Assembly: GCA_963815115.1 (NCBI GenBank)
Contig: CAWFFN010000005.1
Coordinates: 320,001 to 384,000, forward strand
DNA length: 64,000 nt
Direction: 5' to 3'
Source: an uncultured delta proteobacterium
GTDB taxonomy: Bacteria > Desulfobacterota > Binatia > DP-6
Numbering within the stretch: the first letter of the stretch is position 1; every line of letters begins with the position of its first letter. Both the position numbers and the translations under genes were made by a program. Positions 46,451 to 64,000 of this stretch are shown here, one piece after another. Below the pieces are notes generated by a model. That model was not told where the DNA came from. It worked only from the letters and a program-made list of their open reading frames with translations, and made no database searches.

Positions 46451-46552
46451 TCACCAGGCGTCCATTCTGGGTCGCGGGGCGCCCCACGTTGCACGCGGGG
46501 AGCGCGGCCCCAGACGGCTATCTGAGCTCGCGGCTCAGGACATGAACCGGGG

Positions 46553-49621: not shown

Positions 49622-49717
49622 GAGCCGCGCGAGCCCTAGACGACGCCTGCGCGGCAGGCAACCCGGTTCCATTCGCGGCGCGGCCGGGGAGTGCGCTAGA
49701 CAGGGGCCGCGTCACCC

Positions 49718-51469
49718 ATGAGCCCCGTCGCCACCGGCTCCGACGAGAGCACTCATTCCCGGCAGACCTGGCGGCACTTCGTCGACGCGATCCGCAACCT
49801 CCTGACGAGCGAGGTCCGCGGCAGGGCGATCTTCCTGTGCGTGTCGCTCCTCCTCATCTTCCTCGCCATCAACGCCCTCAACGTCGTCAACAGCTACGTC
49901 GGCCGCGACTTCATGACGGCGATCGAGAGCAAGGACCGGGTGGGCTTCGCCCGCTACGCGCTGTTCTATGTCCTGGTGTTCGCGGCCTCGACGGTGACCG
50001 CGGTGCTGGCGAGCTACACCCAGGATCTCCTCGGGCTGCTGTGGCGCGACTGGCTCACGCGGCGGACCGTGAACATCTATCTCACCGATCGCTCCTACGT
50101 ACGCGTGCAGATGCCGGGCGGGTTGCAGAATCCCGACCAGCGCATCTCCGAGGACATCCGCACCTTCGTCACGATGACGCTGTCGGTGAGCCTCATGCTG
50201 CTCAACGGCTCCATCACCGTCGTCGCGTTCTCGAGCGTGCTGTGGTCGATCAGCCGGAAGCTGTTCGCGGTCGGCCTCCTCTATGCGGCCGTCGGCTCGG
50301 TGGCGACCGTCCTCCTCGGCCGCCGGCTGGTGTCGCTCAACTACATCCAGGCCGACCGCGAGGCCGACTTCCGCGCGCAGCTGATCCACGTCCGGGAGAA
50401 CGCCGAGTCGATCGCGCTGCAGCATCGCGAGGCGCGCCTGCTGAGCCGGCTCATCGATCAGATCGCCGCGCTGATCGGCAACCAGCGCCTCATCATCAAC
50501 GTCTCGCGCAACGTCGGCTTCTTCACGACCGGCTATAACTACATGATCCAGATCATCCCCGCGCTGATCGTCGCGCCGATGTTCATGCGTGACGACGTGC
50601 AGTTCGGCGCGGTCACCCAGGCGGCGATGGCGTTCTCGACCCTGCTCGGTGCGTTCTCGCTCGTGGTGACGCAGTTCCAGACGATCACCTCGTATGCCGC
50701 CGTCATGGCCCGGCTGAACGTGCTGGTGGACGCGCTCACGCCCGACGGAGTGCCCAGGGAGATCACGGTCGTCGAGGACGGCGAGCGGGTGGCGTGGGAG
50801 CACCTCACGCTGCGTGCGCCACGCGACGGGCGGCCCCTCGTGCGCGATCTCAGCGTCGACACGCCGCGACGCATCCGGCTGCTCGTGCGTGGCCGGGACA
50901 ACGCCGCGCGCACCGCGCTCGTCCACGCCACCGCCGACATCTTTCACCACGGGGAAGGCCGCATCATCCGGCCGCCGCTCGGCCACCTGGCCTTCCTGCC
51001 CGAGCGGCCGTACCTGCCGCCGGGGACGCTCCGTGAGGTGCTGGTCGGCGAGCTCGACGGAGGCGCCGTCGGCGACGAGGAGCTGCTGCGCGTGATCGGC
51101 CTGCTCCGCGCCGAGCGGGTGCTGGAGCACGTCGGGGGGCTCGATCGTGAGGAGGACTGGGACGAGGCGCTGTCGCTGCGCGAGCAGGAGCTGATCGCCG
51201 TCGGGCGCGTGATCGTCTCGCGGCCGACGTTCGTGATCCTCCACAACCCGAGCCGCACGCTCGATCGCGACCACATCGAGATCGCGCTGAAAGCGCTCTG
51301 CGAGTGCTCCGTCACCTGCATCACGTTCACGGGCACCGACGAGGAGGACGACCACATTGCGGCGCACGACGCGCTCCTCGAGCTCGCGGTCGACGGGAGC
51401 TGGAGCTGGAAGCCGATCCGCGACGGCGTCGTCGTCGAGGGCGAGGCGCGGCAGGCGGGCGTGCCGTGA
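49718..51469 (+). CDS. YddA/ABCD-type ABC transporter (TMD + degenerate NBD)
   Basis: WRDWLT, NPDQRISEDI, EADFR, RENAESIAL, FLPERPYLPPGTLRE; Walker A/B and signature motifs degenerate. Confidence 0.88.
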   Translation: MSPVATGSDESTHSRQTWRHFVDAIRNLLTSEVRGRAIFLCVSLLLIFLAINALNVVNSYVGRDFMTAIESKDRVGFARYALFYVLVFAASTVTAVLASYTQDLLGLLWRDWLTRRTVNIYLTDRSYVRVQMPGGLQNPDQRISEDIRTFVTMTLSVSLMLLNGSITVVAFSSVLWSISRKLFAVGLLYAAVGSVATVLLGRRLVSLNYIQADREADFRAQLIHVRENAESIALQHREARLLSRLIDQIAALIGNQRLIINVSRNVGFFTTGYNYMIQIIPALIVAPMFMRDDVQFGAVTQAAMAFSTLLGAFSLVVTQFQTITSYAAVMARLNVLVDALTPDGVPREITVVEDGERVAWEHLTLRAPRDGRPLVRDLSVDTPRRIRLLVRGRDNAARTALVHATADIFHHGEGRIIRPPLGHLAFLPERPYLPPGTLREVLVGELDGGAVGDEELLRVIGLLRAERVLEHVGGLDREEDWDEALSLREQELIAVGRVIVSRPTFVILHNPSRTLDRDHIEIALKALCECSVTCITFTGTDEEDDHIAAHDALLELAVDGSWSWKPIRDGVVVEGEARQAGVP

Positions 51470-51496
51470 CGCGTCCGCGGTCCCGTGTGGCTCGAG

Positions 51497-51643
51497 AGCG
51501 GTTTCAAGGGTGTTTCAAGGGGCCTGTTCGGCGCAGGCTGAACATGACCCCCCACCCCACCCGTTCGGACATCTCTACTTCGGGGAAAGGCGGACATTTC
51601 CACTTTGTGTTGACATCCATGGATCGTCGCCCTCTGATGGGAG
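51497..51643 (+). repeat. Non-coding repeat copy A (interrupted by an IS end)
   Basis: About 45/56 identity with 53242-53296 and 23/24 identity (TGGATCGTCGCCCTCyGATGGGAG) with 53298-53321, aligned by eye. Confidence 0.75.
51566..51615. mobile_element. Solo IS end, IS1202/ISNCY-like
   Basis: Terminal TGT (GTTGACA on +) with two subterminal direct repeats CGGACATyTCyACTT 25 bp apart; no transposase nearby. Confidence 0.65.
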
Positions 51644-51722
51644 AGCGCCGGGGAACAGTCGCCCAGTGACGGACTCGGGCGTCCTTGTAGGCGGGCTGCG
51701 GTTCGGTGTACTCCGCCGCGCT

Positions 51723-52205
51723 ATGACGGTGCGCGGAGCGTTCCTGGTGGCGGCGTTTGCGATCGGATTGCTGGGCGGCGTCGCCGAGCGCGCCTCGGCG
51801 GAGTGGGTCGTCGATGCGAGGGGCAAGTGCGTGGAGCGATGGTCACCGGGATCGCTACTGCGCGGCCCGACGGCGATGCTGATGGCACCCACGGCGCCAT
51901 TCCGCCACGCGGCGGGCGTGTTCAGCTACGAGCCGCCGAACCCGGGCGCGGGCAAGGAGGGGTTCGATCCCTGGGGGCCGGTGACGGCGGTCCTCGCCGG
52001 CACCGTCGGCGTCCTCGACAGCGGCGTGTGGCTCGGCACCGGACTGGCAGACACGGTCACCGGCGGTTACTTCGCTATCGCGCCCCATCGCGCCACGCAG
52101 CTCAGCCTGGACCCGCTGATCCCGCTCCTGATGTCGGAGGGACAACGGAACGCGATCGAGGCGAAGCGCCCGGATCCGTGCGGCCGTATCGGGGCGCCCT
52201 CCTGA
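51723..52205 (+). CDS. Hypothetical exported/membrane protein
   Basis: Signal peptide ending ASAE; hydrophobic segments; GLADTVTGGYF; start uncertain. Confidence 0.55.
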   Translation: MTVRGAFLVAAFAIGLLGGVAERASAEWVVDARGKCVERWSPGSLLRGPTAMLMAPTAPFRHAAGVFSYEPPNPGAGKEGFDPWGPVTAVLAGTVGVLDSGVWLGTGLADTVTGGYFAIAPHRATQLSLDPLIPLLMSEGQRNAIEAKRPDPCGRIGAPS

Positions 52206-52231
52206 CGGCGGCTGCCCGAGGAGATGAAACG

Positions 52232-53071
52232 ATGCACACGTCACAGCGCGTGACGGTCGAGGCGCAGGTGAACTACCTGACTCCGATGGCGGAGAAGCCG
52301 GTCAACTACACGTTCCGGCCGCCGCCCGGGGTGCCCTTGCGCAGCGGCCGACCGGAGCCCCATCGCATCGAGGTGCGCAATGCCCGGACGCTCGCCGCGC
52401 GGCCCTCCCTGGACGAGCAGGGCTTCGCACTGGTCACCCGCGGGACGTCGGTCGGGAACTTCCACGACGCGGCCGAGGTGTGCTCGGTCTACTATCCGGA
52501 GATCGAGGCGCTCCTGAAGGCGGCCACCGGCGCCGCCGAAGTCGTGGTCTTCGACCACACGCTGCGCTCGGCATCCGCCGAGCAGCGTGCCGCGACGGGG
52601 ATCCGGGAGCCCGTGCGGTACGTGCACAACGACTATACCGCCCTGTCCGGCCGCCAACGGGTGACCGATCTCCTCGAGCCCGCACACGCTGCCGAGCGCC
52701 TGAAGGGCCGCCACGCGGTGATCAATGTCTGGCGATCCATCCACCGGCCGGTCGAGCAAGCACCGCTGGCGGTCTGCGACGCCCAATCGATCGCGCCGGA
52801 GGACCTGGTGGCCACCGACCTCATCTATCGGGATCGCATCGGCGAGGTGTACTCCCTCACCCACAACCCGCGCCATCGCTGGTTCTACTACCCCGCGATG
52901 GCTCCGGACGAAGCCCTGCTCATCAAGACGTACGATTCGCTCGAGGACGGTCGGGCGCGCTTCACCGCGCATACGGCCTTCGACGACCCGAACACGCCGC
53001 CCGATGCGGCGCCACGTGAGAGCATCGAGGTCCGGGCGCTCGTCTTCTACCCGGCCGCCGCCCGGTCGTGA
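52232..53071 (+). CDS. CmcJ/NvfI/AsaB-family putative Fe(II)/2OG oxidoreductase
   Basis: LDEQGF, YYPE, FDHTLR, VHNDYT, INVWR, PLAVCDA, FTAHTAF, RESIEVRAL. Confidence 0.88.
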   Translation: MHTSQRVTVEAQVNYLTPMAEKPVNYTFRPPPGVPLRSGRPEPHRIEVRNARTLAARPSLDEQGFALVTRGTSVGNFHDAAEVCSVYYPEIEALLKAATGAAEVVVFDHTLRSASAEQRAATGIREPVRYVHNDYTALSGRQRVTDLLEPAHAAERLKGRHAVINVWRSIHRPVEQAPLAVCDAQSIAPEDLVATDLIYRDRIGEVYSLTHNPRHRWFYYPAMAPDEALLIKTYDSLEDGRARFTAHTAFDDPNTPPDAAPRESIEVRALVFYPAAARS

Positions 53072-53229
53072 GCATCCAGCCATCGGGTGGCGGCGGTCTT
53101 CGTGGCAACCGCCGCCGGGAGTTCGATTGGCGCTCGCTGTCGACAATCAGGGCTGCGCTCCGAGACTACTGCCGGTCGATGCGGCCGGACAAGCCCAGCC
53201 TATGGTAAGAGCGGGTCCGTCCTGGAGGG

Positions 53230-53321
53230 GGGCAGATAGCGGTTTCAACGGGCGTGTTCGGCCCAGGTGGATATAACCCCCCATCCCGGACGTTCGCTGG
53301 ATCGTCGCCCTCCGATGGGAG
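53230..53321 (+). repeat. Non-coding repeat copy B
   Basis: Homologous to 51497-51643 without the IS-end segment; its GGGCAGATAGCGGTTTC 5' part also matches 43232-43257. Confidence 0.75.
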
Positions 53322-53343
53322 CCCTGACAGCCATCCGCACGGC

Positions 53344-53433
53344 GTGACTACCAGCTCGCGACCCTTCCGTAGCGAGGACGCGTACGTCGCCGACACCGGC
53401 GGTGGTCGTGTCCAGAAGTTCGGGTGTCCCTAG
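53344..53433 (+). pseudogene. C-terminal remnant of an NHL-repeat protein
   Basis: ...AYVADTGGGRVQKFGCP* resembles the NHL YVAD.GN.RIQKF motif. Confidence 0.5.
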
Positions 53434-53466
53434 CTCATCCGGGCCTACCGGCCGCCGCCGTCATCG

Positions 53467-54069
53467 TCACGAGATGGGGTGACCAGGGGGGTGGACATTC
53501 GGCTGACAAGAACAGGTTCCCGGGGGCAAGGATCCCTCCGGCACGCAGTGGTACCCTGGGGAGCAAGCGCCGCCGCATTGCGGGTAGAGCACCGGTCCGC
53601 AGGGTGGCAGCGTCGTCGTGGTGGTCGTCGACGTGGTGGTGGGCGTCTGGCACGTCGATCCGCCCGCGGAGGGCGCGCAGACGAGGCCAACACAGCACGA
53701 CGTCGACCCGCAGGAATCGCCGGCGGCCACGCAATCGCCGGGCTCGGCGACCACGAGCCCCATGACGATCGCGTCGACGTGCGCTTCGACCGCCGCGACG
53801 TCGCCGGTCGTGCGACATCCACCCTTCGCCTCCGCCGCCGCGAATGCCGCCGTGAACCGCTGATCGGCTTTCGCGAGACAGGTATCGTCGACGGGCACGC
53901 TCACCTTGACGGACTTGCCCCAGCACGCGAGCTTCGCGACGGCCTTCTTGCTCGCCGCGGTGAGCTTGGCGGCGGCGCATGTGTCGGCGGGGGTCGCAGC
54001 GGCAGCCACGCGGGCCAGCACGAGGATCGCGGTGAGGATCGAGCGGAGCGCTGGACGTGTCGTGCGCAT
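53467..54069 (-). CDS. Secreted Cys-rich hypothetical protein
   Basis: Signal peptide; CAAAKL...C..K...CL.KA...GGC helical domain; knottin-like C..CC..C..C; Thr linker; Cys-rich tail. Confidence 0.75.
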   Translation of the reverse strand: MRTTRPALRSILTAILVLARVAAAATPADTCAAAKLTAASKKAVAKLACWGKSVKVSVPVDDTCLAKADQRFTAAFAAAEAKGGCRTTGDVAAVEAHVDAIVMGLVVAEPGDCVAAGDSCGSTSCCVGLVCAPSAGGSTCQTPTTTSTTTTTTLPPCGPVLYPQCGGACSPGYHCVPEGSLPPGTCSCQPNVHPPGHPIS

Positions 54070-54080
54070 GGCAATCCCCG

Positions 54081-55277
54081 TCAGTTGGTGGCGCAGCCGA
54101 ATATCGACTGGCCGGTCGAGGGCCAGACGTACATGCCGACGAAGCATTGCTCGGAGTCGACGGACTCGCCGAAGAATATCGTGTGGCCCGTCGCGTTGAC
54201 GTAGGTGCAGATCGTCTGGACGGCGTCCCCGGCGTGCACCGGGAACGACGTCGGCAAGACGAGCTGATCGCCGAGTGTGTACGGTGCATCGAGGACCGTC
54301 TTCGGCACGGCGCCCGTGGTGATCACCATTTTCACATGGGTGCCCCTGGCATGGAGATGCGGCCACAGCCCCACGACCTGCGTCTCGTCCAGCCAGCTGC
54401 ACCCGCCGGACGCCGTGTGCGGCATGCCGTCACTCGGGATCGAGATGTTGAACGTCCCGGTGAGCACCAGGGCGGCATCGTCGAGCACGCTCGACGCCGG
54501 GCCGGTGCGGACGAGCACCCCCGCGATTCCGTTCGCGGGCACGGCCGCGTCGTTCGCGAGAGACACGTTCAGGTTGACGTAGTCGCCCGCATGCAGATGC
54601 ACGCCGACGCCCAGCGGGAAGGCGAAGTCGTCCGTGCCGATTCCCGACGCGAAGATCAGCCGATCGTCGAGGCTTCCCGCGTTGCAGTCGTAGTCGCCGA
54701 GCGGTGCCGAGGTGGACGACGACACGGTGACGAGCATCTCGAACACGCCCGTCGGAGACACTGGACGGAACGCCTTGATGTACACGTCCGACGGAACCCG
54801 AACCCGCCGGCACTGGAATCGCTGGGACCCCGGCAGGGTCGACCAGGAGCGCCCGACCAGCAGGCGCCAGTCGCCGTCGGGGCCGCCGGGCTCGCCGGCC
54901 ACGAGCATGGTGACGCCGTCATCGACGTCGGACGCGATGGTCGTCGCATCGCCGCTCCTGGCGCACCCGCCTTTCGCGTCGGCCTTGACGAAGGCGGTCG
55001 TGAGCTTCTCCTCCGCCTTCAGCAGGCACGCGATGTCGACCGGCCGCGCCCTCTTGACGGCGCTCGTGTAGCACTTGAGCTCGCCCGCCGTTCCTTTGCC
55101 CGCGGCATTGAGCTTGGCCGCGGCGCAGGTCCCCTGCGGCGTCGTCGCGGCGCGCGCGACGTCCGGGGACAGCGTCCAGGCGGCGAGGACGACGACGGCC
55201 GCCGTGGCGTGTCGGACCGCATCGATCGATGTCGCGCGGTCGCGGGTGACGATCCGGGATGCTCGCCTGAAGGTCAT
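54081..55277 (-). CDS. Secreted protein: CAAAKL domain + degenerate copper type II (PHM/DBH-like) monooxygenase domain
   Basis: WPHLHARG, CTYVN.TG..I.FGES...EQC. Confidence 0.72.
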   Translation of the reverse strand: MTFRRASRIVTRDRATSIDAVRHATAAVVVLAAWTLSPDVARAATTPQGTCAAAKLNAAGKGTAGELKCYTSAVKRARPVDIACLLKAEEKLTTAFVKADAKGGCARSGDATTIASDVDDGVTMLVAGEPGGPDGDWRLLVGRSWSTLPGSQRFQCRRVRVPSDVYIKAFRPVSPTGVFEMLVTVSSSTSAPLGDYDCNAGSLDDRLIFASGIGTDDFAFPLGVGVHLHAGDYVNLNVSLANDAAVPANGIAGVLVRTGPASSVLDDAALVLTGTFNISIPSDGMPHTASGGCSWLDETQVVGLWPHLHARGTHVKMVITTGAVPKTVLDAPYTLGDQLVLPTSFPVHAGDAVQTICTYVNATGHTIFFGESVDSEQCFVGMYVWPSTGQSIFGCATN

Positions 55278-55313
55278 TGGAATGCGCTCCCGACCGTGGA
55301 GGCGTGACCGCGT

Positions 55314-55342
55314 ACGGCACGACGTGCCGTCGTCCGGCACGA
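55314..55342. promoter_or_regulatory. Palindromic putative operator
   Basis: ACGGCACG-A-CGTGCCGT perfect inverted repeat plus a third half-site CGGCACGA, between a regulator-like gene and the secreted-protein genes. Confidence 0.35.
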
Positions 55343-55373
55343 ATCGCGGGCCCCGCAAAAAATTTGGCGGAAC

Positions 55374-57257
55374 CTAGAGGTCCCAAAAGATGGACGGGGC
55401 GGGGCCCGGATCGTAGGCGCAGCAGTGGCCGGTCTTGATCGAAGTCGCGAGATGGCGGCCGAGGGCCTCGTCGTTGGTGCGGACCTTCGCGATCGCGGCC
55501 TTGATGGCCTTCGTCACCATCAGCCGCGCCCGCTCGGCGTGTGACGCGGCCTTTCGGTCTCGACCGCCGAGGCCGAGCGCGGCGACGATCTGTTCCCGAA
55601 GCGACTCGATCTCGGCGCGCAGGCGCGCCGCGCGCAAGGTGTCGTTCAGTCGAACGGCGTCGGCGAGCTCGTCGCGCATCTCACCGATGCGCCGGCGATA
55701 CTGCTCGCGAGCCGCGGCATCGATCGACGGTCCGGCGTCTCCGAGGTCCGCGGCGGTCGCGTCGGAGTCGACCCTCGCACGGCGGCTGCCGGGCGGCGCA
55801 GCCGCCTCGGCGAGATCGCGCGCGAGGATCGGGCGACCGGGGTGCGCCAGGAGGTGCGCGATGTAGCGAAGCCCCTTGGCGTCCTTCAACCTGATCACGT
55901 TGGCCCGCCACGACACCGTCCAGTACTCGCCTTCGCGCCGAAACGTCGCCTCGGCGTCCGCCGATCCGGCTCCGCCGCTCGCGGTCGCGCTGCGGGCGCC
56001 GTCGATCTCGACGCCACGTCGTGTCGGCGCGTGTCGGCGATAGACCTCGATCGCGCTGTCGAGCTTCTCGATCGCCGCGCGGCGCTCGGCGCCGGCTTGC
56101 AGCGTTCGGCCCCAACTCTGGAACGTCCGCGCTTCCTGCCACACCATGCCGTACCGACGAAAGGTCTCCGCCGCCTTGATGAAGAGAGCTTCGGATTCGC
56201 TCCACGATCCCCGCGCCGCGGCGACGACCGCCTCGGCCCGCGCGACGAGGCCGGCCAGCGCGGCCGCGTCGTCGCCCGCGGCCAGGATCTCGCGGCATCG
56301 CTCGAGCTCTGCGATGGCTTCGTCCGGATTTGCGCACTCGCCGTCGGGCGATTCTCCCGCCATCGGGTGCGCGAAGCCCAGCTCGTCGGCGGCCGCCGGC
56401 GCGGCGATCGGTTGGACCGCGTCCGGGCGACGGCGTTGGCCGGTCACGAACTCCTCGACCTCGTCGAGCAAGAGGTCGAGCACGTCCCGATCCATGGCCT
56501 GAAGCAGGTGATCGTCGCCGGGAAGCTCGACGTACTTGGCGCCCGGAATGGTCCGCGCCAGGTATCGTCCGGCCTCGACCGGAACGAGTGCGTCCCCCGC
56601 GCGATGCAGGACGAGCGTCGGCACGCGGATCGACGGCAGGAGATCGCGCACGTCGATCTCGTAGTTCGCCCGGACGAGCGCGAGGATCCCGTTCGGACTC
56701 GCCACCGCACGCTCGAGCCGACCGAACCACTCGACGAACGCCTTGTCTCCGAGGCGCTGCGGGGCGTTCAGGCGCACGAGGATGCCTTGCCCCCAGTACG
56801 TCTCGAGCGCCACGAGAAATCGCTGCATCAGCTCGCGGCTCACCGTCCATGGCGGGGCCTGCATGGAGGCGTACGTGCCGTACAGGATGAGACCCGACAG
56901 CCGCTCCGGATGCTTGGCCGCGAGCGTGAGACACATCTGCCCGCCTTCGGACCAGCCGTAGACGGTCGCGCGACGCGACCCCGTTGCATCCATGACCGCC
57001 AGGATGTCGCCGACACGCTCGTCGAGCGTCTGCTCGGCGACTCGATCGGACAAGCCCTGTCCGCGCTTGTCGAAGACGATCACTCGCGCGAACGAGGCGA
57101 GCCGCTTGAGCATGTAGGCGTTGATGGGAAGCTCCCAAAAGAGCTCCACGTGCGACACCGTTCCCGGTACGAGGACGACGTCGCACGGGCCGTCTCCGAA
57201 AACCCGGTACGCGATGTGGACGTCGCCACTCTTGGCGTACTTCGTGCCGGCTTCCAT
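55374..57257 (-). CDS. Alpha/beta hydrolase fused to TPR-like and putative DNA-binding C-terminal domain
   Basis: YAKSGDVHIAY, FDKRGQGLSD, GWSEGG, LPGDDH; FRREGEYWTV, KGLRYIA.LL, ERARLMVTKAI, IKTG..CAY.P. Confidence 0.8.
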   Translation of the reverse strand: MEAGTKYAKSGDVHIAYRVFGDGPCDVVLVPGTVSHVELFWELPINAYMLKRLASFARVIVFDKRGQGLSDRVAEQTLDERVGDILAVMDATGSRRATVYGWSEGGQMCLTLAAKHPERLSGLILYGTYASMQAPPWTVSRELMQRFLVALETYWGQGILVRLNAPQRLGDKAFVEWFGRLERAVASPNGILALVRANYEIDVRDLLPSIRVPTLVLHRAGDALVPVEAGRYLARTIPGAKYVELPGDDHLLQAMDRDVLDLLLDEVEEFVTGQRRRPDAVQPIAAPAAADELGFAHPMAGESPDGECANPDEAIAELERCREILAAGDDAAALAGLVARAEAVVAAARGSWSESEALFIKAAETFRRYGMVWQEARTFQSWGRTLQAGAERRAAIEKLDSAIEVYRRHAPTRRGVEIDGARSATASGGAGSADAEATFRREGEYWTVSWRANVIRLKDAKGLRYIAHLLAHPGRPILARDLAEAAAPPGSRRARVDSDATAADLGDAGPSIDAAAREQYRRRIGEMRDELADAVRLNDTLRAARLRAEIESLREQIVAALGLGGRDRKAASHAERARLMVTKAIKAAIAKVRTNDEALGRHLATSIKTGHCCAYDPGPAPSIFWDL

Positions 57258-57627
57258 TACCGACGCTCTGCCTCTCGCTGCACGCTGCCGCGTGGAGCGG
57301 TGCGCTGTCAATGGATGGCGTCGAGGCGGTCCTGGGCGATGGGCGGCCGCAAAAGCGGCGCTTCCAGAAGGCGTTCCGCCCTGGCGTGCAGAGCAGCGGT
57401 TCCATTCTCAGGACGAAGCTCCCCTCGAAGGCGAAGACCGGGACAACGCCGACTTCGGAGGGTTGCCAGCGGCGCCGGGGAGGACCGAGGTTCAGGCGTT
57501 TCGACCTCGTGCGGGAGCTTCCACTCAGAGGCGACGCTGCACGTGTACGTGGCGGCGCTGCGGTTCTCCACCGGTGACGTTGGAGCGGCGGACGTGATGT
57601 GTCAGGTTCCGGCGCCGCGGACGATCC

Positions 57628-59181
57628 TCAGGTCGCGAGTGCGGGGTCCAGGGCGTGCCGGCCCGCCGCCCACGGGCTCTCGGCCGCGCCGAGCTCTGGA
57701 TCCCACATGTCGAGCTTCTGCATGACGGACACGATGTGCTTGTACGTCACCAGGGCGGAGAACACGGCGTTCAGTCCCGACGGCTTTTCCTTCCACCGGC
57801 GCAGGACCCGGAGCGGGATGCGTCGGAACTCCGGTCCCATCGACCCGAACGCCCGCAGCAGGTGCGTGTAGAACTCGGCGCCGTCGTCCTCGCCGAGCCC
57901 GTACACGACCCGACCGGAGTCGGGCCACACCTCGCAGAGCCCCAGCACACGCTGGCCGAAATGGGCCGGGTGGTACAGGCGATTGAGCAGCCAGCGCGTG
58001 CCGTGGCGTAGCTGGTCGGCGGTCATCAGCTTGGGCACGATGTTGGTCCCGGAATAGTGGTCGAAGTCGGGACGATCGACGAGCCGACCGTCCGCCCGGA
58101 GGCGCGCCTCGAGCGGAGTCCCCGCGGGCGCGTTCAGCATCCCGGTGCTGCAGATCGGCACGTTGGCGGCCTGCAGGAACTCGAACTGCTCGCGAAACGC
58201 GTCGGTGGTGTCGTGGTCGAAGCCGACGATCATCCCCGCCTGGACGCAGACGCCCCGGGCCTGCAGCTCGTGGATGCTCTCGAGCAGGTCGCGGGCGAGG
58301 TTCTGCCGCTTCTTGGCCTCCGCGAGCGCCGCCTTGTTGGGCGACTCGATGCCGACGAACGCCACGTTCAGGCCCGCCGCGGCGCACAGGTCCACGACCT
58401 CGGGATCGCGCACGATGTCGATCGAGAGCTGGGTCGAGAAGATCACCGGCTCCGCGCGGTCCCCGTTCCAGTCGCGGAGCGCGGTGAGGATCTCCGTCGC
58501 CTTCTTGCGGTTGACGGTGAAGTTGTCGTCCGAGAGGAAGATGGAGCGATACCCGTAGCCGTACAGCGTGTCCGCCTCGGCGAGGATCTGCTCGACCGCC
58601 TTGTGGCGGATGCGGCGGCCGAGATACACGATGACGTCGCAGAACTCGCACTCGAACGGGCATCCGCGGCTCGTCTGGATGACGCCGATCGTGTAGCGGT
58701 CGTTGCGCAGGAGATCCATGCGCGGCGGGGGCGAGAGGGCGAAGTCGATCTTCTCGGGCTGGGCGTAGTGGTCGCGGTGCCGCCCGGCCCGGAAGTCGTC
58801 GAGGAACGCCGGCCAGGTGAGCTCGGCCTCGCCGGTGAAGAGGATGTCGCAGTAGGGGCGGCAGCGCTCCGGGCTCAGCGAGGCGAACGGACCGCCGATC
58901 GCGACCAGCCGCCCGCGCTCGCGGAACATCCGCGCGAGCTCGACCATGCGCCGGCTCTGGCTGACGTAGCCGGTGATCCCGACCAGGTCGCACGGCAAGT
59001 CCAGGTCCACGGCCTCGACCGTCTCGTCACAGATCACCACCTCGACGTCCTTCGGCGTCAGCGCCGCCAGCGTCGGCGGCGCGAGGTTCGGGATGTATCC
59101 CGGCTTGCCGGTGATGTCGGCCGCTTCCGAGAGGCTCCAGAAGCTCGCCTGCAGCCCGGGATTCACGAGGTAGACGCGCAC
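57628..59181 (-). CDS. B12-binding domain radical SAM protein (DUF4070-like)
   Basis: PNLAPPTLAALTP, GGPFASL, TGEAE, SRGCPFECEFCD, LSDDNF, GIESP, GMIVGFD.D. Confidence 0.92.
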   Translation of the reverse strand: MRVYLVNPGLQASFWSLSEAADITGKPGYIPNLAPPTLAALTPKDVEVVICDETVEAVDLDLPCDLVGITGYVSQSRRMVELARMFRERGRLVAIGGPFASLSPERCRPYCDILFTGEAELTWPAFLDDFRAGRHRDHYAQPEKIDFALSPPPRMDLLRNDRYTIGVIQTSRGCPFECEFCDVIVYLGRRIRHKAVEQILAEADTLYGYGYRSIFLSDDNFTVNRKKATEILTALRDWNGDRAEPVIFSTQLSIDIVRDPEVVDLCAAAGLNVAFVGIESPNKAALAEAKKRQNLARDLLESIHELQARGVCVQAGMIVGFDHDTTDAFREQFEFLQAANVPICSTGMLNAPAGTPLEARLRADGRLVDRPDFDHYSGTNIVPKLMTADQLRHGTRWLLNRLYHPAHFGQRVLGLCEVWPDSGRVVYGLGEDDGAEFYTHLLRAFGSMGPEFRRIPLRVLRRWKEKPSGLNAVFSALVTYKHIVSVMQKLDMWDPELGAAESPWAAGRHALDPALAT

Positions 59182-59193
59182 GGTGCACCTCCG

Positions 59194-59940
59194 TTACATC
59201 GCGAGTCCGCCGTCGACGTGCACGACCGCACCCGTCACGTAGCGGGCGGCGGGGGAGAGCAGAAACGCCGCCACCGGCGCGACGTCCTCGGGCTCGCCGA
59301 AGCGCCGCATGGGAATCAGCTCGGTCGCCTGGCGCTCGTACTCCGGCTTCAGTCCGGCCGTCATGTCCGTCCGGATGAACCCGAGGGCCAGGGCGTTGAC
59401 GGTGATGTCGAGCCGCCCGACCTCCTTCGCCAGCGCCTTGGTGAAGCCGATGACGCCCGCCTTCGACGCCGAGTAGTTCGCCTGACCGGGCATGCCGACG
59501 ATGCCACTCACCGAGGTCACGTTGAGGATGCGGCCGCTCTTGGCCTTCATCATGGGCGTGATCACGGCGCGACAGAAGTTGAACACCCCGGTCAGGTTGG
59601 TGTCGAGCACGTCCTTCCAGTCGTCGGCCTTCATCATCATGAGGAGCTTGTCCTTCGTGATGCCCGCGTTGTTCACGAGGGCGTGGATCTCCCCCAGCTC
59701 GCTGCGGGCGCGCGCGATCATCTCCCGGACGCGCTCGAGATCGGCCGAATCCACCTGGGCCGCGAGCGATCGGACGCCCAGGGCGTCGAGTTCGCTCGTC
59801 AGCGTCTCGGCGAGGTCGGCGCGGCTGCGATAGGAGAACGCCACGCTGCACCCTTGCCGGGCGAGCTCCAGGGCGATGGCGCGCCCGATGCCCCGCGTCG
59901 CTCCCGTCACGACGGCGACTCTGCCCTCGAACGTGCTCAC
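59194..59940 (-). CDS. fabG: 3-oxoacyl-ACP reductase
   Basis: TGATRGIG, VNNAGITKDKL..MM, GQANYSASKAG, VDGGL. Confidence 0.9.
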   Translation of the reverse strand: MSTFEGRVAVVTGATRGIGRAIALELARQGCSVAFSYRSRADLAETLTSELDALGVRSLAAQVDSADLERVREMIARARSELGEIHALVNNAGITKDKLLMMMKADDWKDVLDTNLTGVFNFCRAVITPMMKAKSGRILNVTSVSGIVGMPGQANYSASKAGVIGFTKALAKEVGRLDITVNALALGFIRTDMTAGLKPEYERQATELIPMRRFGEPEDVAPVAAFLLSPAARYVTGAVVHVDGGLAM

Positions 59941-60692
59941 GAGCTGCCATTCCCCGAGCGCTCCGCGATCTGCTCGCCGACGAGCGCCGCGAAGGCTTCC
60001 GTCTCGCGGCGGAGGCCGTCGGCGCCGCCATCGGTCAGGAAGCATTCCTTGAGCGCTCTCACCGCCGCCGCGGGCTTCGCGGAGAGGTCGCGGGCCATCT
60101 CCCCGGCGGTCGCCAGCACGCGGTCTCGCGGCACGAGCCGGTCGACGAGCCCCCAGGCCAGCGCCGTCTCGGCCCGGATCATCCGTCCGAGGTACAGCAT
60201 CTCCTTGGCCCGTCCGACGCCGATGAAGCGGGCGAGGCGCTGGGTCGCCCCGAGGCCCGGAATGATGCCGTGCTTCAGCTCGGGCATGCTGAAGTACGCC
60301 ACCTCCGAGGCGACCCGGAGGTCGCACACCAGCGCGAGCTCGAGGCCCCCGCCGATGGCGACGCCGTTGATGGCGGCGATCAGCGGCTTCGGATAGGCCT
60401 CGATGCGCGAGTAGATGCGCTGGAACCTTTCGAACAGCGTCATGCGCTCCTCGTGTCCGAGGCCCGCCATCTCCTCGCCGAAGAGCTGCTGCAGATCGCC
60501 GCCGGTGCAGAACGCGTTGCGGATCCCGCCGGTGAGGATGACCGCAGCGACGGCAGGGTCGTCCTTCCAGGCCTCCAGCGCCGTGACGATCTCGTCCAGC
60601 ACCTGGCCGTTGATGGCATTGATCGGCGGTCGCATCAGGGTGACGGTGCCCACCCCGTCCTCGTGCGCGACCGACAGGTGATGAAATCCCAT
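59937..60692 (-). CDS. Enoyl-CoA hydratase (crotonase) with both catalytic Glu
   Basis: AFCTGGDL, GGGLELALVCD, FSMPELKHGIIPG. Confidence 0.9.
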   Translation of the reverse strand: MGFHHLSVAHEDGVGTVTLMRPPINAINGQVLDEIVTALEAWKDDPAVAAVILTGGIRNAFCTGGDLQQLFGEEMAGLGHEERMTLFERFQRIYSRIEAYPKPLIAAINGVAIGGGLELALVCDLRVASEVAYFSMPELKHGIIPGLGATQRLARFIGVGRAKEMLYLGRMIRAETALAWGLVDRLVPRDRVLATAGEMARDLSAKPAAAVRALKECFLTDGGADGLRRETEAFAALVGEQIAERSGNGSS

Positions 60693-60694
60693 GC

Positions 60695-61915
60695 CTATTC
60701 GCTCCCCACGACGAGACACGCCGAGCTGGCCTGCGGATCGAGCGATGGCACCAGGACGGTGCGCACCGCCCGGGCGAGCGGGCCGGACACGAGGGCCAGC
60801 GGCCCGATCTCCGGATCGACCTCCGTCGTGTTGATCGTCGGCGGGATCGTGCCCGACTCGAGCGCGACGAGCGCGGCAGCGGTCTGCAGCGCGCCCGACG
60901 CCCCCATGCATTCGCCCAGCATCGACTTGACCGCCGTCACCGGGACATCGGGTCCGAGGAGCCGTCCGATCGCCGCCCCCTCGACGAAGTCGGCCTCGCG
61001 GCTCGAGCTGGCGGATGCGCTGACCAGGTCGACGGACCGGGGCGCAACGCCGGCACGCTCGAGCGCCAGGCTCATCACGGCTTTCACGGAGTCCGCCGCG
61101 CGCCGTCCGCCGGTGAAGAGCGACCCGTAGCCAGCCACGGTTCCCCGGATGCGCGCGCCTCGTTTGCGGGCCACGTCCCGGTTCTCGAGGACGAAGAGAT
61201 AGCAGCCCTCACCGAGGACGAACCCTCTCCGCCGCCGGTCGTAGGGCACGCTGAGCCCTGCCGCCTCGCCTCGCGCGAGCCGACCCTCGTCGGCTGCGAG
61301 CAGGAAGGCATCGAGGGAGAGCTGCTCCATGCCGCCGGCGACCACGCGGGTCGCCTGTCCCGAGCGGATCATGCCCGCCGCGGTGCCGAGCGCGTCGGCG
61401 CTGGACGCGAATCCCGAGGACACCGTGTTGATGCAGGCCTGGAGCCTGGACCGCACGGCGGCGAAGTTGGTCGCGGAATTGAGCGCCGCGTCGAACCCCT
61501 CCATGGGAAGCAGGTCGGCTGGATCATGAGTCAGTATCTTCTGCGTGTAGTCGGTGGTCTGAGGAAAGTTGCCGTGCGCGGTCCCGACGATGAGCCCGGT
61601 CTCGGCCCGCGTCTCCTCGCCGTCCTCCAGCCCGGCGTCCTGGAGCGCCTGCTGCACCGCGACGGCCAGAAGCCGCGTCCCGCGCATGACGTACTTGATG
61701 CCCTTGCCGCCCAGCCGCTCGTCCGCACGCAGGTCGCGCACCTCGGCGCCCACCCGTACCGGCGACGCCGAGAGGTCGAGCGTCGTCACGGGACCGATCG
61801 CCGAGGCGCCACGGCGAAGATTCGCCGAGAACTCCTCCCAGGCGCAACCCAGCGGCGAGACGACGCCCACGCCCGTGATGACGACGTGCAGGGATGTCCT
61901 CGCCTCGGCGCTCAT
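60695..61915 (-). CDS. Non-catalytic ketosynthase / chain-length-factor-like subunit
   Basis: VVITGVG, GFVLGEG, KSMLGE; active-site Cys replaced (SSGFASS), HGTGT replaced by SASSS, second His replaced by E. Confidence 0.85.
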   Translation of the reverse strand: MSAEARTSLHVVITGVGVVSPLGCAWEEFSANLRRGASAIGPVTTLDLSASPVRVGAEVRDLRADERLGGKGIKYVMRGTRLLAVAVQQALQDAGLEDGEETRAETGLIVGTAHGNFPQTTDYTQKILTHDPADLLPMEGFDAALNSATNFAAVRSRLQACINTVSSGFASSADALGTAAGMIRSGQATRVVAGGMEQLSLDAFLLAADEGRLARGEAAGLSVPYDRRRRGFVLGEGCYLFVLENRDVARKRGARIRGTVAGYGSLFTGGRRAADSVKAVMSLALERAGVAPRSVDLVSASASSSREADFVEGAAIGRLLGPDVPVTAVKSMLGECMGASGALQTAAALVALESGTIPPTINTTEVDPEIGPLALVSGPLARAVRTVLVPSLDPQASSACLVVGSE

Positions 61916-63090
61916 GCCTTCGTGAAGACGACGACGGCGTTGTTGCCGCCGAAGGCGAACGAGTTGTTCATCACCGCACGGAGCGCGAGCGGGCGTGCGG
62001 CGTTCGGGACGCAGTCGACGGGGCAGTCCGGGTCGGGGGTCTGGTAGTTGATGGTGGGAGGGACGACTCCGTCCCGCAGCGCCAGGCAGCACACCACGGA
62101 CTCGATGGCGCTGGCCGCTCCCATGGAATGGCCGATCATCGACTTGACCGAGCTCACCGGGAGGCGGCCGGCCCGGTCGCCGAACACGGCGCGCAGCGCC
62201 ACGGCTTCGGCCCGGTCGTTCGCCGGTGTCCCGGTGCCGTGCGCGCTCACGTAGTCGATGTCGTCGGGCGCCAGCCCGGCGGCGCGGAGCGCGGCGCGCA
62301 TCGCCCGGATGGCCCCTGCGCCCGACGGATCGGGCGACGTCACGTGGAAGCCGTCCGCGCTCAGCCCGTACCCCTTCACCTCGGCGTAGGCCGGCGCTCC
62401 CCGCTCGGCGGCGTGCTCGCGCGACTCGAGCACGAGCATCCCCGCGCCCTCGCCGATCATCAGACCGCGGCGGTTCCGGTCGAACGGCTGGCAGTGCTCG
62501 GCGGCCAGAGAACGGAGGTTGTGGAAGTACGTGAACTCCGTCTGCGCGAAGACGTCGACCCCGCCGACGACCATCGCGTCCACCTCGCCTCGCCGGATGA
62601 GATCACACCCGGAGGCGAGGGCATGATTCCCGGAGGAGCACGCGTTCACGGACAGGAGATGGGGTCCGCCGGTGCCGAGCCGGTCCGCCAGCGCGCCCAG
62701 GATGGTGGAGAGGGGATAGGTGCGGGTGACCGCCGGCGTGAAGCCGTTCGCCTTGGTTGCCGGGTCGGCGCGCAGCGCCGCCTCGAAGGTCTTCAGATCG
62801 CCCCCGAGCGTGCCGACGACCACCCCCACACGCTCCGCGCCCGTGCGGCCCACGTCGAGCCCGGCGTCCCGGACCGCCTCGCTCGCGGCCGTGCCCGCCA
62901 GCTCGTGCGGGGTGGTCTCGAGCGCGAGCTCGCGGATGACGTGGCCCCGGTGCACCTTGTAGGCCGTCGTGTCGAAGTAGGGGATCTCGCCGGCGCCTTC
63001 CCGACCGGCGAGCATCGCCTTCCACGCCGCATCGGTACCGACTCCGACGGAGGTGACGAGGCCGACGCCGGTGACGACGACTCCTGACAT
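61912..63090 (-). CDS. fabF: Beta-ketoacyl-ACP synthase (FabF-like / type II KS-alpha)
   Basis: NACSSG, HGTGT, KSMIGHSMGAA, NNSFAFGGNN; intact Cys-His-His triad. Confidence 0.9.
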   Translation of the reverse strand: MSGVVVTGVGLVTSVGVGTDAAWKAMLAGREGAGEIPYFDTTAYKVHRGHVIRELALETTPHELAGTAASEAVRDAGLDVGRTGAERVGVVVGTLGGDLKTFEAALRADPATKANGFTPAVTRTYPLSTILGALADRLGTGGPHLLSVNACSSGNHALASGCDLIRRGEVDAMVVGGVDVFAQTEFTYFHNLRSLAAEHCQPFDRNRRGLMIGEGAGMLVLESREHAAERGAPAYAEVKGYGLSADGFHVTSPDPSGAGAIRAMRAALRAAGLAPDDIDYVSAHGTGTPANDRAEAVALRAVFGDRAGRLPVSSVKSMIGHSMGAASAIESVVCCLALRDGVVPPTINYQTPDPDCPVDCVPNAARPLALRAVMNNSFAFGGNNAVVVFTKA

Positions 63091-63335
63091 CTAGGAGACC
63101 GACCCAAGACGGCGTCTCGGGTCGGATCCGGAGGCGAGCGCAGCGCGCTCGGTAGCACGCACGACCTGCATGTCGCGGCCGGCAACGCCGGCGCGACACT
63201 CTCGGCACGCCCGTGTCCGCCTCGTTTGCCGCGCCAGCTTTGCTGGCCGCGGCATGGCGGTCGCCCATGCCACCATACGTCTCATGTCCACTTTTCCTCT
63301 CCGACCCAAGACGCAGTCCTGGGTCGGCCTTCTAG
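63091..63335. mobile_element. MITE-like element with CTAG flanks and terminal inverted repeats
   Basis: Left CTAGGAGACCGACCCAAGAC versus right (reverse complement) CTAGAAGGCCGACCCAGGAC; each end has a CCGACCCAAGAC..GTCYYGGGTCGG hairpin. Confidence 0.75.
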
Positions 63336-64000
63336 GCGGTGGCGTGCTCCTGCCGGTAGCGCCACAGCGCGCGGTCGTACTCGCCGGAGTCCCGCAGGTC
63401 CTTCGCGTTCTGGATGAGGTGCCGGAAGACCAGCTGCCAGTCGAGGTTCACGCGAAACGCGAAGTACGCCGCCGCCAGGTTGCCCAGCACCTCGCGAGCG
63501 CGGGCGAACCGCCGGCGCAGGACCTCCGTGGTGTAGAGGCGCTCGTAGAGGTGCTCGAGCCCCGCGATGAAGTCGTCCAGCGGCATGCTCTTCAGCAGGT
63601 AGAGGAGGTGATGCGCGGTGCCGTACTGCCAGTCCTGCGGGAAGCGGTTGCGGAACAGCCGCCCCTCGGCCTGCAGGCGCTCGTAGAAGCGCGTTCCCGG
63701 GGCCGGGGTCTCGATCCCGCAGGTCATGATGTCGATGTCGTTGTCGAGGACGAAGTCGGCGACGCGATCGAACACCTCGGGGCTCTCCGTGTCGGTCCCG
63801 AAGATCATCGTGCCCCAGACCGCCAGGCCGTGGTGGTGGATGCGCTCGATGGCGCGTCGATAGTCGCCCCCCGTGGCCTTCAGGTTGAACTTCTTGTTGA
63901 GGAGCTGGAGGGTCGCGGCCTCGAGCGACTCGAATCCGATCAGCATCCCCACGCTGCCGGACTGCGCCATCCAGTGCAGGACCTCGTCGTCCTCGGCGAT
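63332..64000 (-). CDS. B12-type radical SAM protein, C-terminal part (partial at window edge)
   Basis: LIGFESL, GTMIFGTD, TPAPGTRFYERL..EGR; same C-terminal pattern as the other two rSAMs in the window. Confidence 0.82.
   Translation of the reverse strand: MAEDDEVLHWMAQSGSVGMLIGFESLEAATLQLLNKKFNLKATGGDYRRAIERIHHHGLAVWGTMIFGTDTESPEVFDRVADFVLDNDIDIMTCGIETPAPGTRFYERLQAEGRLFRNRFPQDWQYGTAHHLLYLLKSMPLDDFIAGLEHLYERLYTTEVLRRRFARAREVLGNLAAAYFAFRVNLDWQLVFRHLIQNAKDLRDSGEYDRALWRYRQEHATA

Follow-up and report, generated by a model that had tools for sequence, protein, structure and literature searches.

The question raised by this locus is what a pair of ketosynthases (KS), one of them catalytically dead, makes together with B12-type radical SAM proteins. 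The genes lie at 57628-64000, at the end of the window (the whole stretch of DNA analysed, 64,000 nucleotides), and an earlier note had read them as a candidate pathway for an unusual, ladderane-like lipid. We find that they form the downstream half of a minus-strand operon of ~15 kb and 13 genes. This operon probably unites, outside anammox bacteria, counterparts of the two gene clusters regarded as ladderane candidates in anammox, and probably encodes an ACP-dependent route to a fatty acyl lipid on which radical SAM enzymes act.

Gene content of the operon

The six visible genes are all on the minus strand and occur in the order that had been claimed: rSAM3, KS2, CLF2 (a dead, chain-length-factor-like KS), crotonase, FabG and rSAM4. 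There are two 4-nt overlaps, one of them between KS2 and CLF2, and gaps of 2, 12 and 241 nt, the longest between rSAM3 and KS2, so the description of the genes as mostly overlapping was slightly generous. As foreseen, the cluster continues beyond the window edge (positions above 64000 are window coordinates extended past that edge). The first gene, ACP1 (72192-72467), is followed by FabZ (71728-72195), KS1 (70493-71731), the dead KS CLF1 (69270-70496), a CrtI-like (phytoene-desaturase-like) oxidase (67790-69265) and two more B12-radical SAMs, rSAM1 (66327-67775) and rSAM2 (64774-66315), all on the minus strand. The ACP, FabZ and phytoene-desaturase-like genes that the earlier note had suggested looking for past 64000 are thus present, and FabZ is indeed missing from the visible part, where the crotonase is found. 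Immediately upstream of these 13 genes there is a third KS module, ~8 kb long. G+C is even across the region (0.68-0.73), in a host genome of 70% G+C.

Both radical SAM genes in the visible part are of the B12 type, as had been proposed. The full rSAM3 gene (63332-64774, minus strand; G000:C5:383332-384774) encodes 480 aa with B12-binding, Radical_SAM and DUF4070 domains; its C-terminal 222 aa are visible at 63332-64000, and this part alone matches DUF4070. The last operon gene, rSAM4 (57628-59181, minus strand; 517 aa), matches Radical_SAM (67 bits), DUF4070 and B12-binding, the latter at 31.5 bits, just under the 32.1 cut-off. On the same B12-binding model (PF02310) rSAM1-3 score 41-48 bits. 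A CxxxCxxC motif is present in four of four proteins (CPYTCEFC in rSAM3; CPFECEFC at residue 174 of rSAM4), as expected of B12-dependent (class B) radical SAM enzymes with putative cofactor binding. rSAM4 is 29-32% identical to rSAM1-3, and its nearest relatives, at 62-65%, are a tandem pair next to a Spirochaetales-labelled cluster (L074); in anammox genomes it finds only 36-40% identity over ~80% of its length. A search with rSAM3 among longer proteins, for a possible radical SAM-KS fusion, gave two matches. One (P0121, 862 aa) has only a partial KS N-domain and one stretch resembling an out-of-frame translation, and was taken as a gene-call artefact; the other (P0122) lacks a KS domain.

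The assignment of one active and one dead KS in the visible part was borne out. KS2 (61912-63090, minus strand; 392 aa) retains the Cys-His-His residues (reading Cys-His-Lys-His). CLF2 (60695-61915, minus strand; 406 aa) keeps the KS fold, with Ketoacyl-synt N and C domains, and has lost all three catalytic residues (Cys to Phe, first His to Ser, second His to Glu), giving the pattern Phe-Ser-Lys-Glu. A KS2-CLF2 complex model scored 0.95 against 0.00 for the best control, passing a mark that 116 of 157 solved complexes and 2 of 215 mismatches also pass; because solved KS dimers exist, this pass may reflect likeness only. At least 95% of contacts agree between model runs, with a partner pLDDT of at least 90, and CLF2 is predicted from these models to pair with KS2. 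The crotonase-fold enoyl-thioester hydratase (59937-60692, minus strand; 251 aa; ECH_1, 3e-59) has both catalytic Glu motifs (GGGLELAL and MPEL) aligned with those of solved hydratases. FabG (59194-59940, minus strand; 248 aa) is a 3-oxoacyl-ACP reductase that exceeds the TIGR01830 cut-off (312 versus 297.75 bits).

The 241-nt spacer between rSAM3 and KS2 (63091-63331) has a strongly folded sequence (256 nt with a minimum free energy of -170 kcal/mol; z = -11.4) and was considered as a regulatory RNA. It is instead a dispersed palindromic repeat outside the pathway, with many genomic copies that share ~67-78% identity across stretches of at least 100 nt; it is missing at this place in a same-genus genome, where the spacer measures only ~62 nt. 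There were no Rfam matches at E <= 0.1 in 57000-64000. A scan of 55000-64000 returned no sigma-70-like sites and one terminator-like site (55385-55368), after an alpha/beta-hydrolase gene.

Correspondence to two anammox clusters

Cluster I of Kuenenia (kuste3603-3608) consists of amxACP, amxFabZ, amxFabF2, amxFabFmut, a phytoene-dehydrogenase-like protein and a B12-radical SAM. Here the stretch from ACP1 to rSAM1 (66327-72467) has the same six genes, in identical order and orientation. Identities to the Cluster I proteins are 42-52% for the ACP, 42-56% for FabZ, 48-63% for the KS, 44-51% for the dead KS, 44-53% for the oxidase and 57-63% for the radical SAM; rSAM1 is 62% identical to the Kuenenia protein over 99% of its length. 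The six-gene core occurs in the same order at 55 of 79 related loci.

PDB searches, a KS tree and a radical SAM tree all place the core proteins nearer to anammox proteins than to those of ordinary fatty acid synthesis (FAS). The best solved matches are 9s5h_B for KS1 (2.5e-162; next, 7e-103) and 9s5h_C for CLF1 (2.9e-106; the best outside 9s5h and 9s5i is a FabF at 2.5e-57). FabZ matches 8ayi and 7qv0, both named S. brodae amxFabZ by their depositors, at ~1e-47 (next, 3e-33), and ACP1 matches 7auf (3.9e-26) and the amxACP chain 7qv0_D (2e-21), with the best ordinary ACP at 7.6e-7. In gene trees KS1, KS2, CLF1, CLF2, rSAM1 and rSAM3 each fall beside their anammox counterpart. The concern that the KS might group with housekeeping FabF was not borne out: KS1 and KS2 group apart from the FabF-like genes of the host (C8:597931 and C5:1018665), and their TIGR03150 (fabF) scores of 435 and 375 bits are both below the 493.75 cut-off. 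On the NCBIfam lipid-biosynthesis model TIGR04072 (rSAM_ladder_B12), rSAM1-4 score 51-73 bits, under the curated 360-bit cut-off; the Cluster I radical SAMs of Kuenenia and Brocadia themselves reach only 87-89 bits, so this model describes another family and the low scores do not count against orthology to kuste3608.

The visible genes correspond to a second anammox cluster. In Kuenenia, kuste2802-2805 encode AcpS, a B12-radical SAM, FabF and a non-canonical dead KS. Our operon has the same succession of radical SAM, KS and dead KS; a crotonase and FabG come next, an arrangement also seen in Brocadia and Scalindua. rSAM3 is 57-59% identical to the radical SAM preceding the KS/dead-KS pair in Brocadia and Scalindua and forms a joint clade with its anammox counterpart (local support 98). 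KS2 (51-52%) groups with the KS of the second cluster (SH-aLRT 100), and CLF2 (39-41%) shares a clade with the Brocadia and Scalindua orthologues (SH-aLRT 96). The crotonase is 41-44% identical to the one downstream of the dead KS in the same two second clusters, and FabG is 60% identical to that of the Scalindua genome (L099).

The dead KS residues fit this correspondence. CLF2 shares the Phe at the Cys position and the Glu at the second His with Kuste2805; the Brocadia and Scalindua orthologues read Phe-Asn-Lys-Glu, the pattern tabulated for Kuste2805 by Rattray et al. CLF1 has likewise lost Cys-His-His and reads Glu-Gly-Lys-Glu, with Val-Asn-Lys-Glu in its Kuenenia and Brocadia counterparts, and the patterns of the two dead KS fit those of Kuste3606 and Kuste2805.

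In all, eleven operon genes have colinear anammox counterparts (ACP, FabZ, KS, dead KS, CrtI-like oxidase and radical SAM; then radical SAM, KS, dead KS, crotonase and FabG). The link to the anammox ladderane candidate genes suggested earlier is therefore stronger than could be known from the window, resting on colinearity with both clusters, and synteny between radical SAMs and KS pairs extends to related genomes; its absence there would have counted against the link. There are also differences. The genes of this operon fall outside the clade of Brocadiales-type sequences, two paralogous radical SAMs and the attached second cluster are added to the Cluster I core, no AcpS domain was seen among the scanned cluster ORFs, and the operon ends with a fourth, divergent radical SAM. 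The two clusters are joined here, whereas both anammox genomes examined hold them apart, ~215 kb from each other in Brocadia pituitae and on different contigs in the Scalindua genome. Parts of both clusters lie close together at 6 of the 79 loci, none from typical anammox bacteria and carrying five phylum labels or none, which provides independent comparative evidence for one shared pathway. AntiSMASH "ladderane" calls outside anammox bacteria are already in the literature; we found no report of full orthology or of the joining of the two clusters.

Host and genomic surroundings

This bacterium differs from the anammox hosts of Cluster I in its G+C content (~70%) and in lacking a match to the hydrazine synthase alpha domain (HZS_alpha, PF18582). 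The search was negative in the host genome (100% complete) and in two others (G003 and G028), and both anammox controls matched. Genes for a conserved ABC/MlaC-type transporter, an inositol-phosphate-synthase-like protein and an acyl-CoA-ligase-like protein adjoin the cluster, and the MlaC/ABC lipid-transport set lies within a block syntenic across the genus. One search with the acyl-CoA-ligase-like protein (PCL) found no match at E <= 1e-20 in four Planctomycetota-type genomes and G028, an empty result that is uninformative. One relative from the same class lacks the CrtI-like gene at the corresponding place.

Synteny with a same-genus genome stops just downstream of rSAM4. The alpha/beta-hydrolase gene (55374-57257) was considered as a release enzyme and left out of the cluster because 46000-57700 shows no DNA similarity to the 12 kb around the cluster's end in that genome. 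Evidence of expression is thin, consisting of short contigs of ~90-97% identity from one soil RNA library that may contain DNA, and the parts lacking contigs carry no meaning. No sequencing run contained half or more of the sampled words (best DNA run, 0.29); all runs listed are labelled as soil metagenomes.

Proposed pathway and candidate products

From the genes and their conserved residues we infer the following chemistry. The dedicated amxACP-like ACP1 would carry the growing chains, which two KS/dead-KS heterodimers would elongate: KS1/CLF1 may prime and handle short chains, as a 2026 preprint describes for its anammox orthologue, and KS2/CLF2 may act at a second stage. FabG would act as the ketoreductase, with dehydration left to FabZ or the crotonase. 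Double bonds could persist, because no enoyl reductase was found among the scanned ORFs of the cluster, and further ones may be introduced, or existing ones moved, by the CrtI-like flavoenzyme. The B12-radical SAM paralogues would then form C-C bonds on the chain while it grows on its carrier, giving rings or alkyl branches. A parallel in principle is offered by the archaeal GDGT ring synthases, B12-binding radical SAM proteins reported to form rings in lipid tails; their substrates are isoprenoid rather than acyl, and we claim no membership of that group. The product would be the acyl chain of a membrane lipid, and the transporter, inositol-phosphate-synthase-like and acyl-CoA-ligase-like genes adjoin.

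It is possible, if somewhat improbable, that this lineage and anammox bacteria both make a non-ladderane lipid, for example a fatty acid that is polyunsaturated or carries a mid-chain methyl branch. The B12-radical SAMs would then work as C-methyltransferases, and the anammox clusters would not be the ladderane genes. Anammox bacteria also hold methyl-branched acids. Most of the characterized B12-radical SAMs listed in a 2026 review are methyltransferases, as is the nearest solved relative of rSAM1, the C-methyltransferase QCMT (9ccb), a weak match (5.5e-12) that fits methylation as well as cyclization. The cluster also occurs in genomes labelled Myxococcales, Blastocatellia, Acidobacteriota and Spirochaetales that have no full-length HZS_alpha match, and in a deltaproteobacterium whose synteny is looser, Rattray et al. 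detected polyunsaturated hydrocarbons rather than ladderanes. However, a set of three to four paralogous radical SAMs plus two KS/dead-KS pairs is excessive if all it adds is a single methyl branch, and by consensus in the literature Cluster I is highly expressed and has a central role in ladderane production.

That the operon makes true ladderane fatty acids (concatenated cyclobutanes), so that their synthesis is not confined to anammox bacteria, we regard as unlikely. The eleven colinear genes argue for it, as do orthologues of kuste2805, 3603, 3605 and 3606, the four genes assigned by Liao et al. to the origin of anammox, and the 2026 preprint terms Cluster I "unique to ladderane-producing bacteria." However, the cluster has no known product even in anammox bacteria, and the same preprint states that no Cluster I protein has been tied experimentally to ladderanes. 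In the literature consulted, ladderanes are reported from anammox bacteria only, and a cluster in a host lacking hydrazine synthase therefore points to a product other than a ladderane, or to one besides it. Two members of the rSAM1-3 family occur in each of three anammox genomes searched, against four radical SAMs of this kind here, so the product may differ. It is similarly doubtful that a soil lineage lacking hydrazine synthase makes ladderanes or related cyclobutane lipids, with ACP1 to rSAM4 as the complete gene set and the two anammox clusters as halves of one pathway.

Very unlikely is a highly reducing type II polyketide synthase (PKS) making a polyene secondary metabolite in the style of ishigamide or aryl polyenes, with radical SAM tailoring, rather than a membrane lipid: a TetR gene lies inside the cluster, and the active KS with dead partner, stand-alone ACP, ketoreductase, dehydratases and lack of an enoyl reductase recall the ishigamide system (Iga11/Iga12), whose KS (6kxd) matches KS1 at 2.8e-96 and is the closest structural homologue of amxFabF2 in the 2026 preprint, but KS1 is much nearer the anammox KS (2.5e-162), every core protein is far nearer to anammox FAS-like than to PKS proteins, the cluster includes B12-radical SAMs and a CrtI-like oxidase, its scanned ORFs revealed no cyclase, thioesterase, amide synthase, glycosyltransferase or other amide-forming or release enzyme, and the lipid-transport set belongs to the genus-syntenic block.

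For the preferred reading, a joined counterpart of both anammox clusters that modifies a fatty acyl lipid, the consequences reach beyond this host. Ladderane synthesis is a long-standing open question; according to the 2026 preprint it has not been seen in vitro and no producer is genetically accessible. The joined clusters reduce the candidates to about 11-13 genes and force a choice between two views: ladderane-type lipids also occur outside anammox bacteria, or the product of the consensus "ladderane cluster" is something else. Ladderanes serve as a biomarker of anammox bacteria, and a second source would therefore matter. The diverse high-G+C orthologues are alternatives for heterologous expression, which reportedly failed in E. 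coli for the Kuenenia genes. The presence of counterparts of both ladderane candidate clusters in one operon is thus a new way to test how ladderanes are made.

Gene content of the operon

The G+C content of the region is approximately 70% (0.68-0.73 in 1-kb windows), so long spurious ORFs are plentiful. Pfam and NCBIfam scans combined with inspection of start codons identified six real genes, all on the minus strand: the B12-type radical SAM rSAM3 (63332-64000 in the window; the full gene reaches 64774 in numbering extended past the window edge), the ketosynthase KS2 (61912-63090), the dead ketosynthase CLF2 (60695-61915), a crotonase (59937-60692), FabG (59194-59940), and a second B12-type radical SAM, rSAM4 (57628-59181). 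The Cys-His-His residues of KS2 are all present, and CLF2 has Phe, Ser, and Glu in their place. Both catalytic Glu motifs were found in the crotonase, and each of the four radical SAMs at this locus has a CxxxCxxC motif. The domain scans and residue alignment bear out an earlier note made from the sequence alone, which described six co-oriented genes with one intact and one dead KS.

The spacer between rSAM3 and KS2 (63091-63331) is a single, almost perfect long hairpin (MFE -170 kcal/mol, z = -11.4). It is one of a family of dispersed palindromic repeats, of which several contigs carry many copies (~67-78% identity over at least 100 nt), and the corresponding spacer in a same-genus genome is only ~62 nt. 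The hairpin resembles a MITE- or REP-like insertion within the operon. One soil RNA library contains short contigs with ~90-97% identity to parts of rSAM4, FabG, KS2, and rSAM3, one of which skips the repeat insertion. These contigs are a weak hint of expression, as the library may contain DNA.

The earlier note also held that the cluster goes on past the window edge, and the 26 kb directly beyond it proved to contain the ACP, FabZ, and phytoene-desaturase-like oxidase. In extended numbering, the minus-strand genes are rSAM2 (64774-66315) and rSAM1 (66327-67775), both identified by domain scans, an oxidase of the phytoene-desaturase family (67790-69265), another dead KS, CLF1 (69270-70496; catalytic residues replaced by Glu, Gly, and Glu), KS1 (70493-71731), FabZ (71728-72195), and ACP1 (72192-72467). 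The operon, from ACP1 through rSAM4, comprises 13 genes and spans G000:C5:377628-392467 of the source genome (G000), in which the window is G000:C5:320001-384000. rSAM1, rSAM2, and rSAM3 are mutually 47-53% identical. Outside the cluster, the genome encodes at least five other B12-radical SAMs with 30-38% identity to rSAM1: one in the window (23601-24596, plus strand) and others at G000:C8:65088-66212, C8:176767-177933, C9:1835793-1836830, and C12:304638-305939.

Upstream of ACP1 are a minus-strand TetR gene and, on the same strand, a third KS module with its neighbors (72677-80958 extended; L001:17677-19599 and L002:1-5958 in local numbering of stretches around this locus). The module encodes an active KS (KS0), a crotonase, a 3-hydroxyacyl-CoA dehydrogenase, ACP0, and a dead KS (KSx) with Ala, Gly, and Asp at the catalytic positions. 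It is followed by a phenylacetate-CoA-ligase-like enzyme, similar to the DVU_1553 family (199 bits, cut-off 300), and an adjoining myo-inositol-1-phosphate-synthase-like protein. Divergent from the cluster, on the plus strand, are genes for an ABC ATPase, an MlaC-domain protein, and an ABC-2 permease (81096-83812 extended; L002:6096-8812), which may be a lipid-transport set. Rattray et al. place a VacJ-like protein (Kuste3352) within a Kuenenia lipid cluster. DNA synteny within the genus reaches upstream to 83802 extended and covers the ABC/MlaC/permease block. Downstream of rSAM4, no synteny was found for 46000-57700 in 12 kb around the cluster end of the same-genus genome.

Counterparts in the two anammox clusters

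Scanning one genome per species with the rSAM1 alignment returned 163 pattern matches, 140 of them confirmed relatives, and the best 80 of these 140 represent 79 loci. The 22 proteins of the locus were placed on the 79 loci by tblastn, each place being given to the best-scoring paralogue. ACP, FabZ, KS, dead KS, oxidase, and radical SAM have the same order and strand in 55 of these 79 loci, 50 of which carry a Planctomycetota label; the other 24 are mostly short contigs or paralogue loci. Identity to the anammox-type loci is 42-52% for ACP, 42-56% for FabZ, 48-63% for KS, 44-51% for the dead KS, 44-53% for the oxidase, and 57-63% for the radical SAM. The six-gene order matches that given for anammox Cluster I, KustE3603-3608, in a 2026 preprint on the amxFabF heterodimer, and the Cluster I-type dead KS has Val-Asn-Lys-Glu, as listed for Kuste3606 by Rattray et al.

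Searches of PDB sequences place anammox proteins first by wide margins for CLF1, KS1, FabZ, and ACP1. CLF1 matches 9s5h_C (2.9e-106) ahead of the second chain of that entry (1.1e-62) and the best FabF (2.5e-57), and KS1 matches 9s5h_B (2.5e-162; runner-up 7e-103). The preprint's main text does not give the codes 9s5h and 9s5i; we infer that these are its amxFabF heterodimer from the chain composition, an ACP with two distinct KSs, one of which has Val in place of the Cys. FabZ matches 8ayi, 7qv0, and 8ayd (1e-44 to 8e-48; runner-up 3e-33), and ACP1 matches 7auf (3.9e-26) and 7qv0_D (2e-21; best ordinary ACP 7.6e-7). The JBC 2023 paper lists 8AYB, 8AYC, 8AYD, 8AYI, and 7QV0 as amxFabZ entries, 7QV0 being the amxFabZ-amxACP complex. 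In protein searches, 99% of the rSAM1 length aligns to a Kuenenia stuttgartiensis protein at 62% identity, and many Brocadiales-labelled proteins are 52-63% identical to rSAM1.

The gene trees agree with the kinship to anammox lipid genes that the earlier note had drawn. In the KS tree (IQ-TREE quick, 47 rows), KS1, KS2, and their anammox counterparts are set apart from the other FabF-like genes of this genome (support 96), and the CLF1 and CLF2 clades have supports of 97 and 96. In the radical SAM tree (FastTree, 102 rows, rooted on rSAM4-like rows), rSAM3 falls in a clade with kuste2803-type sequences (98) and rSAM1 in one with Cluster I-type sequences (96). The rSAM1 clade includes a subclade (100) of 59 sequences whose labels are of Brocadiales type or unspecific, and the source genome, a same-class relative (G028), and a Blastocatellia MAG lie just outside this subclade. 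Some Brocadiales- or Planctomycetota-labelled genomes have a solitary third radical SAM, 56-59% identical to rSAM2 (L077, L079, L080, and L083-L087), and these form their own clade of eight. Elsewhere in the source genome, G000:C8:181895-187394 contains a pair of KS genes plus a KS-like one that clusters with the dead-KS clade; this may be another KS/CLF system, possibly aryl-polyene-like.

The genes in the window have counterparts in a second anammox cluster. In Brocadia pituitae and Scalindua genomes, CLF2 is most similar to a separate dead KS (40-41%), above the Cluster I dead KS (33%). Its neighborhood has the gene order of the window: a radical SAM (57-59% to rSAM3), a KS (51-52% to KS2), the dead KS itself (39-41%), and a crotonase (41-44%), followed in Scalindua by a FabG with 60% identity. 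The second-cluster dead KSs of anammox genomes have Phe-Asn-Lys-Glu, the residues tabulated for Kuste2805 by Rattray et al. In Javidpour et al., kuste2802 is listed as an ACP synthase, kuste2803 as a SAM radical enzyme, kuste2804 as FabF, and kuste2805 as a non-canonical FabB. By gene order, dead-KS residues, and this list, the window genes are counterparts of kuste2803-2805, with a crotonase and FabG in addition.

Distribution and joining of the clusters

The hydrazine-synthase alpha domain HZS_alpha (PF18582), used as an anammox marker, was full-length in five anammox-type genomes, all five of which have CLF2 orthologues (40-44%, E <= 2.5e-88). In a Kuenenia MAG outside this tested set (G042), the expected CLF2 place runs off the contig end. 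HZS_alpha was not found in the source genome (100% complete), in the compared genomes G003, G028, and G444, in the Spirochaetales-, Blastocatellia-, and Acidobacteriota-labelled genomes, or in one small Planctomycetota-labelled genome, and two other Planctomycetota-labelled genomes gave weak partial matches. Bacteroides thetaiotaomicron, one of the control genomes, is also matched, which means that the domain does not mark hydrazine synthase exclusively.

In organisms other than typical anammox bacteria, the two clusters occur joined: counterparts of KS2 and CLF2 occur together with Cluster I genes in 6 of the 79 loci from the best 80 of 140 relatives. Joined loci are found in the source genus (L009), in G028 (L012, without the oxidase and rSAM4), and in a MAG with a Spirochaetales label (L074), where two rSAM4-like genes (62-65%) are also present, with inositol-phosphate-synthase-like (64%) and CoA-ligase-like (66%) genes beside the cluster. 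The others are in a Planctomycetota MAG whose sole HZS_alpha match is weak and partial (L081), a Blastocatellia MAG in which ~11.5 kb of a single contig separates the two parts (L030 and L011), and a small Planctomycetota MAG in which the two parts are convergent (L078). The clusters are ~215 kb apart in Brocadia pituitae and on different contigs in the Scalindua genome. The rSAM1-3 family has two members in each of the three anammox genomes searched and three in the source genome, which encodes rSAM4 as well.

Among 41 relatives, the tandem radical SAM set is present in four of five genomes of the genus (source genome counted), none of 20 in the rest of the family, and 1 of 16 in the rest of the class; an even sample of the phylum has it in 2 of 401 genomes. 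A same-class genome (G025:C139:1541-7644) encodes four tandem B12-radical SAMs, 31-39% identical to rSAM1, which may be another, more distant tandem set.

Proposed working and significance

We infer a working scheme from gene content, orthology, and residues, which are its observed part. According to the 2026 preprint and a Nat Prod Rep 2026 review, the anammox KS/dead-KS heterodimer decarboxylates malonyl-ACP and favors C6-C8 chains, amxFabZ prefers short chains, and a B12-radical SAM is proposed as the ring former. By orthology, KS1/CLF1 and KS2/CLF2 would extend chains bound to ACP1, with keto reduction by FabG and dehydration by FabZ or the crotonase. Since no enoyl reductase is encoded in the cluster, the chains would stay unsaturated, and the B12-radical SAM paralogues may form C-C bonds on them as they grow. 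Among solved structures, rSAM1 is closest to the methyltransferase QCMT (9ccb, 5.5e-12); therefore methylation stays a live alternative to cyclisation. The KS-CLF pairing suggested in the earlier note was modeled, and the predicted KS2-CLF2 complex passed with a score of 0.95, the best control scoring 0.00, with agreement between runs in at least 95% of contacts and partner pLDDT of at least 90. Of 157 solved complexes, 116 attained the pass mark, as did 2 of 215 mismatches. As similar KS dimers are already solved, this pass indicates likeness to them, not binding.

Orthology, synteny, and catalytic residues support the earlier reading of a lipid operon like the anammox ladderane candidate, and the cluster belongs to a known but uncharacterized kind. 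Rattray 2009 reported looser synteny with Desulfotalea and Geobacter, a Cariaco Basin preprint and a 2020 soil study report antiSMASH 'ladderane' clusters of unknown function in Myxococcota, Verrucomicrobia, and other phyla, Liao 2022 has kuste2805, 3603, and 3605-3606 acquired when anammox arose, and the 2026 preprint describes the cluster as unique to ladderane producers. In our searches, which extended to preprints without their supplements, no paper was found that describes complete orthology of both clusters, gene by gene, or the two clusters joined, in an organism outside the anammox bacteria. The value of this locus is the link between the two anammox clusters, and it makes testable whether these clusters really are ladderane genes.
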